From Escherichia coli (GTDB lineage: Bacteria > Pseudomonadota > Gammaproteobacteria > Enterobacterales > Enterobacteriaceae), in NCBI RefSeq assembly GCF_017348835.2, contig NZ_CP071375.1: a stretch of 64,000 nt of DNA, one strand, 5' to 3'. The position numbers were made by a program. Of the stretch, positions 45,101 to 51,100 are shown in pieces (the stretch's first letter is position 1; each line of letters begins with the position of its first letter).

Positions 45101-48100
45101 CCTGTCGGCTGCCGTTCTGGCGCTGATTGGTGCAGGGGCGTCTGCGCCTGAAATCCTCGACCAGTTTCTGGATGAAAAGGATGGTAACCACACCACAGCA
45201 TACCGTGATGGTACGGGTATCTGGACCATCTGCCGCGGTGCCATCCTGGTGGATGGTAAACCTGTCGTCCCGGGCATGAAGTTGTCGAAGGAAAAATGCG
45301 ACCAGGTTAACGCCATTGAGCGTGATAAGGCGCTGGCATGGGTGGAGAAAAACATCAAAGTGCCGCTGACCGAACCCCAGAAAGCGGGGATCGCGTCATT
45401 CTGTCCGTACAACATTGGTCCCGGTAAGTGTTTCCCGTCGACGTTTTACAGACGAATTAATGCAGGTGATCGCAGGGGAGCATGTGAGGCGATTCGCTGG
45501 TGGATTAAGGACGGTGGCAGAGACTGCCGTATTCGCTCAAACAACTGCTACGGTCAGGTCTCACGGCGTGACCAGGAGAGCGCGCTGGCGTGCTGGGGAA
45601 TTGACAGATAAGAAGAATATTTTGCTGAAAAATGAGGTTTGCTTACATGGACGGATAACACGAAATCCTGCAAATTGGCAAAATGTAAGTGAATAAAGTT
45701 AAAACAGTTGTTTAACACTCAGGCACCGTAATGATGCCTTTGTCATTTCTGCGCATCTCACGCGCATCTCACAACACAGAACCTTTCAGGATGACCCTTG
45801 AGGATACCGGTTTGGCTGTGCCTTTCTGTGGGCTGGATTCCTGTGAGACAAGGTTCATCACTAAAAGGAAATAACCGATGAATATGATGGCCGTGCCGTT
45901 TTATGTAGTTAACCATAATGGCGAACCATACGTTCCCATGAAACCTGTCGTTGCGGGGATGGGGCTGGCCTGGCAATCACAGTTGGCTAAGTTAAGACAG
46001 CGTTTTGCGTCAACTATAACGGAAATCGTTATGGTTGCTGAGGATGGGAAACAACGCAATATGGTGTCCATGCCACTTCGAAAACTTGCCGGCTGGCTAC
46101 AAACCATTAATCCCAACAAAGTAAAACCCGAAATCCGCGATAAGGTCATCCGGTATCAGGAAGAGTGCGACGATGTTCTTTACGAGTACTGGACGAAGGG
46201 TTTTGTCGTTAATCCCCGTAAAATGAGCGTGATGGAAGAACTCAACCAGGCTTGTGCTGACATGAAACGGGATAAAAACATTGCCAGTGTGTTTGCTACC
46301 GGGCTGAATGAGTGGAAACAGGTTAAAGCCGCGCATGTATCAAAAATCCGTACGCTGGTAAATGAAGCGAATATGCTGATTGATTTTGTCCTGGCTGATA
46401 CAGGCAAAGGGAAAATAACAAAGGCGGATTGATGGGGTGGCTAATGATATCAGATAAACTCATAACGCTGGTGAAGAGCCTCTGTGTACTTGTCGGCATT
46501 TCATTTTTAGTCATGCTGGTTGCCATTTTCTTTTCCACCGCCTGGCGAGTCCTGACGTTATCGGGACTGGTGGGGTGAAAGAGAGATGAACCGTGTTCTG
46601 TGTGTGGTGATTATTGTCCTGGCGGTTGGCTGTGGTGCGCTGTGGCTGGCAACAAACCATTACCGTGACAACGCGCTCACCTACAAAGCGCAGCGCGATA
46701 AAAAAGCCAGAGAGCTGGAACAGGCGAATGCCACCATTACTGACATGCAGGTGCGCCAGCGTGATGTTGCTGCGCTCGATGCAAAATACTCGAGGGAGTT
46801 AGCCGATGCGAGAGCTGAAAATGAAACTCTGCGTGCTGATGTTGCCGCTGGTCGTAAGCGCCTGCGGATCAACGCCACCTGCTCCGGTACCGTGCGTGAA
46901 GCCACCGGCACCTCCGGCGTGGATAATGCAACCGGCCCCCGACTGGCAGACACCGCTGAACGGGATTATTTCATCCTCAGAGAACGGTTGATGACAATGC
47001 AGAAGCAGCTGGAAGGGGTACAGGACTATATCCGCACTCAGTGCCTGAACTAAGTTTTGCTGATGCGCCGTATCGTCGCCGTATTCCTGCATTAACAGAG
47101 ACCGCAGCCCGACAGGGAGACTCCTCTGCGAGAGTGTGCGGGGATAATCAAAAACGATACACACCGGGGTTTACCGCGTAAACGGAGCGCGGCGTTCTCC
47201 CCTCATGGTCGCCCGTCCGGTGCGATGGTGGAAGAAACTGGAATCTGTTCAATAAAAAAACTGCCGTGTTGGAGTCACAGCAGTAATGTACTGATTGGGT
47301 AGAAGATTATTATTGTTATGCTTTATTTTTATTCTATATGGCTGATTATTTCAATTCGGAATTAATACAGCTAATGTCTGTGATTTTTTATAAATTCAGC
47401 AATATAAAGAAATAGTTATATGAACAGCCATCGCAGAGCATACTGTGTATCATTCTTTTTTATAGTCAACTGACGGGCATATTTTATGTCTGCTGCCAGC
47501 TCCCGGCGGCAAGATTCAATGACCCACGCAGAAAAATTTTCTGAACCTTTCTGGTCAAGAGCGATGTTAATTTGTTCAATCATCTGGTTTGGAAATCGGA
47601 TGTTGCGGGTTGTTGTTCTGCGGGTCCGGTTTTTCGGTGACATTTTCTTTCCTCTGGTGACAAGCTATATGGCGAGGATTTTACATGGCCGTGCTTCGTA
47701 CGTTACCGGGCAGAATCAAAACTCTGAACACCCGGCGGGTGAATGTCCTGAAGGGTGAACAGCGTCGGGTCAGTGGTAGTGCCCGGGTTTCCCTCAAGCG
47801 TCGTATCTGGCTGAGGGATGCCGGACAGTGCTGTCTCTGTGGGCGTGTGGTTGACCTTTGTGACAGTGAACTTGAGCACCGCATTGCACTTCAGTTCGGT
47901 GGTGGTAATGAGGAGACGAATCTCTGGACGCTCTGTACCGAATGCCATCGACAAAAGTCTGCTCGTGAAGCGGCGAGTGGTATGCCAGACCCGACGCTGC
48001 CGGAGGTGTCCGGAGGTCATGGCAGGGCAGACGATATCATCGGACTGTGACCCGCCCCGGGGGGGGGATCATCCGGCGAAAAAAACGATCGCCCCGGACA

Positions 48101-51100
48101 CCGCCCCCCCTCTCACGCAGAGAAAAAATTCCCGTTTCAGGGCAGTTAACATGTTAACTGGCTGTCCGGGCATTTTTGCGGTTTTTATCTTTATTATTCA
48201 GTTTGTTGTGCGGAAAAAATGTTAACTGGCTTTTTCAGCAAATGTTAACCAGGCAGCAGTTAACATTTGCGGCATGAGACGCCGGGAAAAATGGGCTGAA
48301 CCATACCCGGCTGAGTGCGTTCTGGACCCGGGAGGAGGCTGTGCTGACAACGCAAAAACGAAAATTTGCGCTGGCGCTCATGTCCGGGAAAAACAAAACA
48401 GCGTCAGCCATTGCCGCTGGTTATTCGGCGAAGACCGCCTGGGTTAAAGGCTCGCAGCTGGCAAAAGATCCGGAGGTGCTTGCGTTTATAGCCCGTAAAC
48501 AATGCGAGACGGTGGAGGTGGATGAGGTTCCTGTTTACCGGCAGAAAAAATCAGAGCAGGAGGATAAACCCCGTCGCCGTGAGGCGGCTGCAATACCACA
48601 GCCGGATGAAAACAATCCGGAGATGCCACCGTCCGCGGTGATGTCTCCTGGTATTGAATATATGGAGGATGGTCTTCCCGATCCGGTGAAAGCGATGGGG
48701 CGTCTTCTGGTGGAGAACATTAATACCGACCCCAGGCTGGCGCTGGATGCGGCTTATAAGCTGGCGCAGTTCACGCACCATAAAAAAGGGGATGCCGGTA
48801 AAAAATCGGCAAAAGGTGACGCGGCGAAAAAAGCGGCTAACCGTTTTGCGGTGCCACCACCACCCCGCCTGGTGGTGAATAATGATAATGAGGGCAACGG
48901 ATGATACCTGTGTGGAGCACGGCCTGCCCGGACTGGGCAGAGCGCCTGAAAAAGGGGCTGTCGATTATTCCGGCTCCGATTTATCCGGACCAGGCTGCAC
49001 ATGCACTGGCGATTTTTAAACAACTGCGAATTGTGGATGCACCGGGTAGCCCGACATTCGGGGAGTCCTGTGCACCGTGGGTGTTTGACCTGGTGGCGGC
49101 CCTGTTTGGCTCCTACGATGCGCAGACCGGTGTTCGCCATATCAAGGAAGTGTTTATCCTTATCCCCAAGAAAAACAGTAAGTCCACGCTGGCTGCGGGG
49201 ATCATGATGACGGCGCTGTTACTGAACTGGCGGCAGGCGGCGGGCTACACCATTCTGGCCCCGACCGTGGAGGTGGCGGCTAACGCCTTCAACCCTGCCA
49301 GGGATATGGTACGACGGGACGATGATCTGGATGACCTCTGTCAGGTGCAGACACATATCCGGACCATCACCCATCGGGTGACGGACACCACCCTGAAGGT
49401 GGTGGCAGCCGATCCGAATACGGTGTCCGGTATCAAGTCCGTGGGGACACTGATTGATGAACTGTGGCTGTTTGGCAAGCAGTACAAGGCGGAAGACATG
49501 CTACGTGAAGCCATCGGCGGGCTTGCCTCCCGTCCGGAAGGGTTTGTGGTGTATACGACCACCCAGTCGAATGAACCGCCCGCCGGGGTGTTCAGACAGA
49601 AACTGCAGTATGCCCGGGATGTCCGTGACGGCAAAATTCATGATCCGCACTTTCTGCCGGTGATTTTTGAGCATCCTCCTGAAATGGTGGAAAGCGGGGC
49701 TCACCTGCTGATGGAAAACCTCGCCATGGTTAACCCGAATCTCGGTTATTCGGTGGATGAGGCCTTTCTGTACCGGGAGTACCGTAAAGCCCGGGAGGCT
49801 GGTGAGGAAGCATTTCGTGGCTTCATGTCAAAACACGCCAATGTGGAAATCGGTCTTGCCCTGCGTTCTGACCGCTGGGCGGGCGCGGATTTCTGGGAGC
49901 AGCAGGGCAGGCGCGTCAGCCTGGACGATATCCTGCAGCGCGCTGATGTGGTGACGGTGGGGATTGACGGCGGGGGCCTGGATGATCTGCTGGGAATGTA
50001 CGTGACTGGCCGTGACAGGGAAACCCGCGAATGGCTGGGCTGGGGCCATGCCTGGGTGCATGAAACCGCGGTGGTCAGACGGAAGAGTGAGGCATCCCGG
50101 TTTCAGGATTTTGTGGCCTGTGGAGACATGACGATTGTCCGTCGGGTCGGGGATGACACGGCGGAAGTGGCGGAGTATGTGCGTCGTATTCATGAGGCTG
50201 AGTTACTGGATCATATCGGTATTGACCCGTCAGGTGTGGGGCAGATTCTGGATTCACTGGCGGAAGCCGGGATCCCCGATGAGAGTGTGGTGGGGATAAG
50301 CCAGGGCTGGAAGCTGGGCGGGGCCATCAAAACCACCGAGCGCAAACTGGCTGAAGGGGTGCTGATTCACGGTGATCAGCCCCTGATGGCCTGGTGTGTC
50401 GGTAATGCCCGGGTGGAGCCTAAAGGTAACGCCATTCTTATCACCAAACAGGCCAGCGGACGGGGAAAAATTGACCCGCTGATGGCGCTCTTCAATGCGG
50501 TGTCCCTGATGTCCCTGAATCCGGAACCGAAAAAGAAAGCGTATGAGGTTTTTTTCATATAACCCTGCTCACCCTGTAACCATCATGAACCGCTGCGGCG
50601 GTTTTTTTATTTTCAGGAGGCTGATGTGACTCTTAAACGGGCCTGTTCCCTGCTGACGGTGAAATCCTTCAGTGAGGATGAACGGGTGATCACCGGGATT
50701 GCGTCAACGCCTTCTCCGGATCGGGATGGTGACATCCTGGAGCCGGAGGGGGCGGAGTTTGGCAGTACGATCCCGTTTCTCTGGCAGCATGACCATTCCC
50801 GCCCTGTAGGCCAGTGTACGGTGCGTCGGGTCAGGGAAGGGCTGGAAATCACGGCAATGCTGGTGAAGCCGGAGCCGGGGATGCCCTCCCAGATGGCAGC
50901 CCGGCTGGATGAGGCCTGGGCTGCCATTAAGACCGGGCTGGTCAGGGGGCTTTCTGTGGGCTTCCGGCCCCATGAATACACTTATCTGGACGGAGGCGGA
51001 CTGCATTTTCTGCGCTGGGAGCTGATGGAGGTGTCTGCCGTCACCGTGCCCGCGAATGCGGAATGCACCATCCGGACCATTAAATATTTCGACCGCCCGT

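Follow-up and report, generated by a model that had tools for sequence, protein, structure and literature searches.

A probable cos site in a lambdoid Escherichia coli prophage, with a conserved upstream G run and proposed small-terminase sites

Where does the packaging machine of this prophage cut its DNA, and which sequences around the cut would it read? The question is raised by a 290-nt non-coding gap (positions 48051-48340) in a 64,000-nt stretch of Escherichia coli DNA (assembly GCF_017348835.2, contig NZ_CP071375.1; hereafter the window), which separates a gene for an HNH endonuclease from terS, the gene for the small terminase subunit (TerS). A first-pass annotation had noticed a run of nine G (G9), a run of seven C (C7) about 40 bp later and five GTTAAC palindromes in this gap, and had read them as a cohesive-end (cos) region; all of these elements are present, with the two runs 36 bp apart. 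We conclude with good confidence that the gap serves as cos site for a lambdoid E. coli prophage belonging to the BP-4795/1717/Lys8385Vzw group, with an HK97-like machine of HNH protein, large terminase subunit (TerL) and TerS, and that the GTTAAC sequences are to be proposed as TerS sites. The class of site (HK97-type, HNH-associated cos) is already known, and the literature already gives the end sequence of a phage that is nearly identical.

The position of the cut was mapped from relatives and identifies the following element.

48102 to 48111, + strand: cohesive end CGCCCCCCCT, a 10-nt 3' overhang that includes the C7 run, as given by the ends of Lys8385Vzw and the terminal repeat of Bcep176.

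Lys8385Vzw (MT225100; Zhang et al. 2021, PMC7946995) is an induced Shiga toxin 1 (Stx1)-converting phage for which PhageTerm returned cos packaging with 3' cohesive ends of sequence CGCCCCCCCT. Its record, sequenced from induced virions, begins with CTCACGCAG (window position 48112) and finishes with CGCCCCCCCT, so that the break falls exactly at 48111/48112; its TerS shares 98.9% identity with that of the window. Because the published end is identical to window 48102-48111, the C7 run (48104-48110; the sole run of at least seven C in the 64-kb window) is part of the cohesive end itself. The predicted nicks fall at 48111/48112 on the top strand and opposite 48101/48102 on the bottom strand; positions below are counted from the top-strand nick, with 48112 as +1. 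The paper on Lys8385Vzw prints impossible cos coordinates (50,977-50,953 in a 50,953-bp genome).

Independent support for the mapped position comes from the record of Burkholderia phage Bcep176, which carries the 10 nt CGCACGTTCC at both ends and at the homologous place, preceded by GAC and followed by CTCACGCGCAGAAAATTTTCCC. Similarly, the right end of coliphage HK97 aligns here, finishing with GAC and CGCCGCCAAA and showing ACCGCC at -12 to -7, as in the window. The physical ends are thus established in relatives, and it is by sequence that they are transferred to the window strain. Headful (pac) packaging was considered as a candidate and conflicts with the ends that PhageTerm is published to have given for the near-identical phage. 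The record of phage phi330 starts at terL, the gene for TerL, rather than at cos, and its paper does not discuss ends; a 2025 lambdoid-phage paper in Genome Research and the SfIV paper contain nothing on this type of cos.

Is the C7 run, as such, a signal? For the comparison across the TerS family we gathered 80 loci by TerS protein similarity alone (39-100% identity to Bcep176 TerS), with no selection on DNA features. The interior of the overhang proved variable (31 variants among 73 unique sequences), and the close relatives in E. coli carry three alleles, CGCGCCCCCT or CGCCCCCCGT in other members of the BP-4795 group against CGCCCCCCCT in the window; the C7 run as such is therefore incidental. 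The borders of the overhang are fixed, with ACC on the left and CTCACG on the right, and across the family no columns are better conserved than ACC at -12 to -10 and C-CACG at +1 to +6. Anchoring on the left end also brought out an A/T tract, which has CAGA on one side and CCC on the other and reaches +22, together with a run of G at about -52 to -45. Strains that carry up to seven such prophages could in principle hold mismatched cohesive ends between co-resident prophages.

The first-pass suggestion of a cohesive-end cleavage site holds for the C7 run, where the cut is placed, but not for the G9 run. That G9 might nevertheless be cleaved, or that G9 and C7 might form a hairpin or cruciform recognised by terminase, is a thought prompted by two complementary runs that are unique in the window and only 36 bp apart; we regard it as extremely improbable. 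According to the reported ends, cutting takes place at the C run, at a distance of 35-44 nt from G9. Folding 48045-48135 gives a structure not more stable than those of shuffled sequences (z = -1.04), and the C run varies (as in CGCACGTTCC of Bcep176) while the G run is conserved, so the two do not covary.

What, then, is the G run? It forms the core of an element upstream of the cut.

48059 to 48071, + strand: G-run box, G9 followed by ATCA, at -53 to -41 from the top-strand nick.

The run itself occupies 48059-48067 (-53 to -45) and is the only run of at least eight G in the window. A run of at least five G ending 39-47 nt before the nick was found in 66 of 71 unique evaluable loci, the other five having an interrupted G4, against a background of 0.24 such runs per kb in those loci. 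Its length ranges from 7 to 12 among close relatives (L005-L084). HK97, whose TerS is unrelated, has G9-ATCA at -51 to -39, ending 42 nt before its right end. Furthermore, a DNA-pattern scan of IMG/VR (G7-N-ATCA...GCCC...CCGCC) returned 104 matches in at least six lineages. Thirteen of the 17 representatives had a detectable HNH or TerL homologue, and in these the site lies just 3' of the HNH gene and 5' of a terminase gene where one was detectable; the other four had no detectable HNH or TerL homologue and are possibly chance matches. The box also occurs in lineages that combine an HK97-like TerL with a different or undetected TerS.

By sequence comparison, the G-run box is a conserved cos element independent of the TerS family. 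Since it is common to phages with unrelated TerS, the upstream half of cos tracks the HK97-like TerL, HNH and portal proteins and not TerS, and we infer that the G run would be read by TerL, HNH or the portal. Its most likely role would be that of a stop or positioning signal for the motor at termination, and in position it resembles the lambda element cosQ, since the translocating motor reaches the G run shortly ahead of the nick. The DNA that extends from TerL to the portal entrance measures about 25 bp in the termination complex of HK97, and a box at -45 to -53 would accordingly be expected inside the portal channel at the moment of cutting. In the HK97 papers covered by a limited literature search, no mention of a G tract in HK97-type cos sites was found.

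In the PPompW prophages (L192, LC567822.1, 1046-2505), the insertion sequence (IS) ISEc20 of the IS110 family adjoins the cos G run at the equivalent of about window position 48063, leaving five G. Between the tRNA genes and cos, these prophages lack both the lysis genes and the HNH gene. The insertion could have been targeted at the G run, or an IS-mediated deletion could have disabled packaging.

We then turn to the downstream half of the gap, in which the following elements were delineated.

48112 to 48133, + strand: left-end box CTCACGCAGAGAAAAAATTCCC with an A/T tract inside, +1 to +22, kept across this TerS family.
48143 to 48160, no strand assigned: GTTAAC sites a and b, a perfect 18-bp palindrome CAGTTAACATGTTAACTG (inverted repeat I13), +32 to +49.
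48161 to 48215, no strand assigned: T-tract-rich spacer, 60% A+T, with no counterpart in compact relatives.
48217 to 48228, + strand: GTTAAC site c (AAATGTTAACTG), belonging to repeat families D1 and D3.
48238 to 48270, no strand assigned: GTTAAC sites d and e, a perfect 12-nt inverted repeat GCAAATGTTAAC-N9-GTTAACATTTGC (inverted repeat I4, 100% complementary).

About 78 of 82 loci have the left-end box when it is searched for as CTCACGCGCAGAAAATTTCCC with fuzzy matching. In 72 loci, which represent what we call the compact form, it lies 38-41 nt before the terS start. It is absent in HK97, whose left end differs.

The five GTTAAC sites (48145, 48153, 48221, 48244 and 48259) fall within 120 bp, and the remaining 63.9 kb of the window hold 24 more, where dinucleotide shuffles predict 11.3 ± 3.2 for the whole window. 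The hexamer is in excess outside cos as well, with many copies at 20-37 kb; a second pair there (30386/30394) has a different flanking context and was treated as a chance occurrence. Each of the five cos sites matches ATGTTAAC on one of its strands. The exact 10-mer ATGTTAACTG accounts for four of them, two per strand, and has only one further copy elsewhere in the window; the fifth is ATGTTAACCA. The wider context aTGTTAACnrG, attributed to four sites in the first-pass annotation, fits strictly in three copies, whereas two read ATGTTAACTGC.

Conservation of the sites was determined among 67 close relatives. Only 1 of 38 ATGTTAAC core columns was variable, compared with 49 of 187 terS third positions (p = 4e-4) and with 52 of 252 columns in the rest of the gap (p = 0.003), and all five sites are retained in 47 of 48 unique relatives. 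The ATGTTAAC core of site c is invariant in the 67 relatives, with position 48227 being T or A; variants of the a/b palindrome in close relatives are all singletons; and 48238-48270 is the least variable part (5.5% variable columns versus 13.7% in terS). On the question of conservation in related phages, which the first-pass annotation had raised, the answer favours its reading: the motifs are near-invariant in close relatives, and a GTTAA/TTAAC pair is found family-wide, at about +33 to +50.

In the compact loci the terS start codon lies inside this inverted repeat, either TGTTAA-N-TTAACA, as in Bcep176 and the majority of the 80 loci, or, in the Salmonella SP-016-like form, GTAAACATGTTAAC, which in SP-016 stands at the same distance and overlaps the terS ATG. 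The first palindrome of the window is the positional homologue of this terS-start repeat. The TTAAC half encodes the Leu-Thr codons of TerS, and TTA is used for this Leu by 57 of 67 unique genes, versus 4.2% of the other Leu codons in genes that average 59% G+C. Longer leaders between cos and terS are seen in L251 (51 nt), L255 (79 nt), L246 (147 nt), L249 (151 nt) and the window (229 nt). In these long-leader lineages CTC or CTG has replaced TTA as the Leu codon, except in L255, which has lost Leu at this position. The distance from the cut to the first motif is kept, at about +33 to +40, and the leader holds 3-10 motif halves. The window is the extreme, with terS 190 bp further downstream and five full GTTAAC sites.

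L246, L249, L251 and L255 are IMG/VR contigs in which the leader was independently lengthened, and L246 keeps the old start ATGGTTTAACA out of frame. Among Burkholderia-type loci, L208, L214, L217, L223, L232, L233 and L244 have ATGGCCTTTAACAGC (M-A-F-N-S) rather than ATGGCTTTAACAGC (M-A-L-T-A); one extra base shifts the N-terminal frame while the TTTAAC DNA motif stays, which may reflect a different true start or sequencing errors.

Could TerS bind such sites? Residues 2-57 match PF03592 (E 2.3e-8; profile positions 1-56 of 141), and an AlphaFold model places residues 1-55 in a four-helix N-terminal domain with a predicted local distance difference test score (pLDDT) of 96-98. The top Foldseek matches of this domain are the SF6 G1P DNA-binding domain structures 4zc3 and 2cmp (template modelling score 0.81, root-mean-square deviation 1.6 Å, 30% identity). 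Direct sequence similarity of TerS to PDB chains is weak (E 0.3); residues 60-187 are modelled at low confidence (pLDDT 45-76), and only the N-terminal domain matches G1P. TerS is thus confidently modelled as having an SF6/SPP1-type N-terminal helix-turn-helix DNA-binding domain. Because of the low variability of the cores, the TTA codon, the leader expansions and this SF6-type domain, we take predicted TerS binding sites to be the best reading of the GTTAAC repeats.

The first-pass annotation had left the choice between terminase and integration host factor (IHF) recognition repeats, and only the former fits the comparative evidence. A role for the repeats as sites for IHF or another host DNA-bending protein would recall lambda cosB, which contains an IHF site, and the spacer at 48161-48215 is indeed A+T-rich with T tracts. 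However, the IHF consensus WATCAANNNNTTR, even with one mismatch, has no match in 48051-48340 (the 49 matches in the whole window are at chance level), GTTAAC is unlike that consensus, and the motif tracks the TerS family across hosts including Burkholderia and Escherichia. We consider this explanation very unlikely.

The arrangement in compact relatives brings up a regulatory alternative, that GTTAAC is an operator for terS/terL, used in TerS autoregulation or by another phage regulator, and not a packaging signal. In most relatives the inverted repeat covers the terS ribosome-binding site and start, which is typical for autoregulation, and palindromic sites of this kind resemble those of dimeric helix-turn-helix proteins. 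In the window, L246 and L249, however, the spacing between cut and first site (+32 to +49) is unchanged even though the start codon now lies 110-190 nt away. Since it is the distance to the cut and not to the start codon that is kept, the first site is tied to cos. Furthermore, a promoter and terminator scan of the region gave nothing above shuffled expectation, and no promoter-like site above chance. Operator and packaging roles could coexist; an operator is plausible in the compact relatives and fits less well in the window, and as a replacement for the packaging role we think it quite unlikely.

The same positional homology bears on another possibility, that the GTTAAC copies are functionless debris of a displaced and duplicated terS start (ATG-TTA-AC...), with TerS reading only the A-tract box at the left end. 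Several features fit an origin of this kind: the first palindrome stands where the compact terS start stands, a vestigial 24-codon open reading frame (ORF) begins at the old ATG, site c with its flank is a 16-nt copy of site b (15/16 identical), sites e and a, each taken with the flank, agree in 11/11 positions as copies, and HK97 TerS needs only a 15-bp site beside the cut. Against it, variability is lower in the ATGTTAAC cores than at terS third positions and in the remaining spacer, and independent long-leader lineages whose start codon has moved away still have the motif or have multiplied it. Also, G+C-rich genes retain the rare TTA codon, and the copies form perfect inverted repeats. Debris thus accounts for the origin of the first palindrome and of the vestigial ORF, but not for the low variability or the repeated expansions, and as a full account of the repeats it is unlikely.

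The 24-codon ORF (48151-48225, + strand; MLTGCPGIFAVFIFIIQFVVRKKC) runs from the ATG in the first palindrome to the TAA in the third GTTAAC, is very hydrophobic and is open in nearly all relatives; a PHROG search gave no match. It is probably a vestige of the displaced ancestral terS start, read through the T-rich spacer, and a real small membrane peptide is possible.

Several points weigh against our interpretation of the site and should be set beside the TerS-site reading of the repeats. The A-tract box (+1 to +22) is equally conserved and overlaps the position bound by HK97 TerS, which contacts a G and the adjacent A tract at +15 to +29. This box is therefore an equally good candidate for the primary TerS site, and it could be the main site or even the only one. 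The close relatives diverge by 1-6%, which limits the conservation test, and against the downstream rest alone p is 0.03-0.09. The TTA bias could in part reflect a general preference for A/T-rich codons near start codons, and the compared loci are phylogenetically related, so the counts overstate independence. The role given to the G run, whose length is not fixed (7-12), is deduced from its conservation and position. Finally, the ends for the window strain are taken from the published analysis of a relative, and the window prophage may be defective.

We tentatively suggest, with rather more doubt than belief, that the G run is a general, undescribed, TerS-independent element of HK97-type cos sites that resembles cosQ and, as a separate matter, that this TerS family uses a GTTAA/TTAAC code that expands when terS moves away from cos.

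How might the site work? Terminase, aided by HNH, would make staggered nicks to leave the 10-nt 3' overhang CGCCCCCCCT at 48102-48111. The downstream half, as the first DNA packaged, would be the TerS recognition region and take the role of lambda cosB, being composed of the A-tract box and of GTTAAC half-sites for the SF6-type helix-turn-helix domains of a TerS ring. In most relatives this part has a single inverted pair, at about +34 to +50, over the terS start, and in the lineage of the window, where terS has moved by 190 bp, it has five copies of the motif. In the upstream half, G9 would be read by TerL, HNH or the portal and would stop or position the motor during termination.

The genes that would supply this machine flank the gap as follows.

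47685 to 48050, + strand: HNH endonuclease gene (PF01844, E 5e-6; PHROG 589 HNH endonuclease, E 6e-43).
48341 to 48904, + strand: terS, small terminase (PF03592; PHROG 641, E 2e-67).
48901 to 50562, + strand: terL, large terminase of the HK97-like class (Pfam PF03354 and PF20441).

The HNH gene lies directly upstream of cos, and RefSeq relatives likewise annotate an HNH endonuclease there. The HNH protein of the window is 24% identical to HK97 gp74 (E 0.064), and the HNH protein of L135 links the two, with 33% identity to the former and 40% to the latter (E 1e-21). The start codon of terS is GTG, with a Shine-Dalgarno sequence GGGAGGAGG at 48330-48338, and TerL aligns with HK97 gp2 by BLASTP over 490 residues (23% identity, E 1e-11). 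The first-pass reading of a cos packaging system with HNH is supported as an HNH-associated module, in which the HNH gene is followed by terS and terL; from gene adjacency and the HNH motif, the phage may also require HNH for cos cleavage. Downstream, the order is terS, terL, a protease-capsid fusion and portal. The prohead protease and major capsid protein form one 645-aa ORF (PF04586 and PF05065; 50626-52563), and the portal gene (52775-54139) comes after the capsid gene, not before it. A search of 47300-48900 against Rfam gave no match at E up to 1.

How widespread is the site? Of 94 phage records, 93 carry a 306-bp region at 97-100% identity. Matching gaps belong to long-tailed lambdoid prophages and phages of enterohaemorrhagic E. 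coli, among them BP-4795, 1717, 2851, YYZ-2008 and many Stx1a-, Stx2a- and Stx2c-converting phages. The site occurs in 1242 of 5426 complete E. coli genomes, in up to seven copies per genome, and is unannotated in RefSeq. A 225-bp core matches 2942 places and a 1351-bp query that includes the genes matches 3119; no cos-only context (satellites, plasmids) stood out in this comparison, which was by totals and not place by place.

The gap thus represents the packaging signal of a prophage type that is among the commonest in pathogenic E. coli, and what DNA these Shiga-toxin-type phages can package and pass on depends on this site. What the comparison of relatives adds is modest: a TerS-independent G-run box, a TerS-specific GTTAA code and leader expansion. 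In the resulting conservation map, the G run and the nick site with its ACC and CGC track the HK97-like TerL and HNH, and the downstream box and GTTAAC track the SF6-type TerS; the map suggests concrete mutants for HK97 in vitro packaging and for cos-plasmid transduction.

Among known systems, the group of Lys8385Vzw, BP-4795, 1717, 2851 and YYZ-2008 has essentially the same sequence as the window, with a G run of seven in Lys8385Vzw versus nine here; the paper on that phage (PMC7946995) gives the 10-nt end only, and not the G-run box or the GTTAAC sites. Bcep176 shares the TerS family (37% identity), the left-end box and a 10-nt end at the same place. Its G run is interrupted (GGGGAGGGGG) and lies at the same distance as the G9 of the window, and it represents the compact form, with TGTTAA-N5-TTAACA over the terS start 39 nt from the cut and no extra copies.

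HK97 resembles the window in its order of HNH (gp74), cos, terS (gp1) and terL (gp2), its homologous TerL, G9-ATCA 42-44 nt before the nick, ACCGCC at -12 to -7, a 10-nt 3' overhang, and an A/T tract that follows the cut at no more than about 30 nt. It differs in a TerS that is unrelated in sequence and in a downstream cos half without GTTAAC sites or the CTCACGC box. The binding site of HK97 TerS is a single stretch of 15 bp, +15 to +29 (PMC11331095), and gp74 stimulates cos cleavage (PMC11331095, PMC9410871); the overhang length is given inconsistently, as 10 nt (PMC11331095) versus 12 nt (PMC9410871).

With SPP1 and SF6 the window shares the N-terminal DNA-binding fold of TerS. These phages package by headful from pac, where multiple short boxes flank the cut, whereas the group of the window has defined cohesive ends, published for a relative, together with an HK97-like TerL and HNH. 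In lambda, cos consists of cosQ, cosN and cosB, with a downstream multi-site TerS-binding region beside terS, an IHF site, a 12-nt 5' overhang, a Nu1-type TerS and no HNH. The window differs in a TerS of the PF03592/SF6 type, an adjacent HNH gene, no IHF consensus and, in its relative, a 3' overhang of 10 nt; its likeness to lambda lies in the three-part layout of an upstream element met first by the motor, a nick site and a downstream multi-site region.

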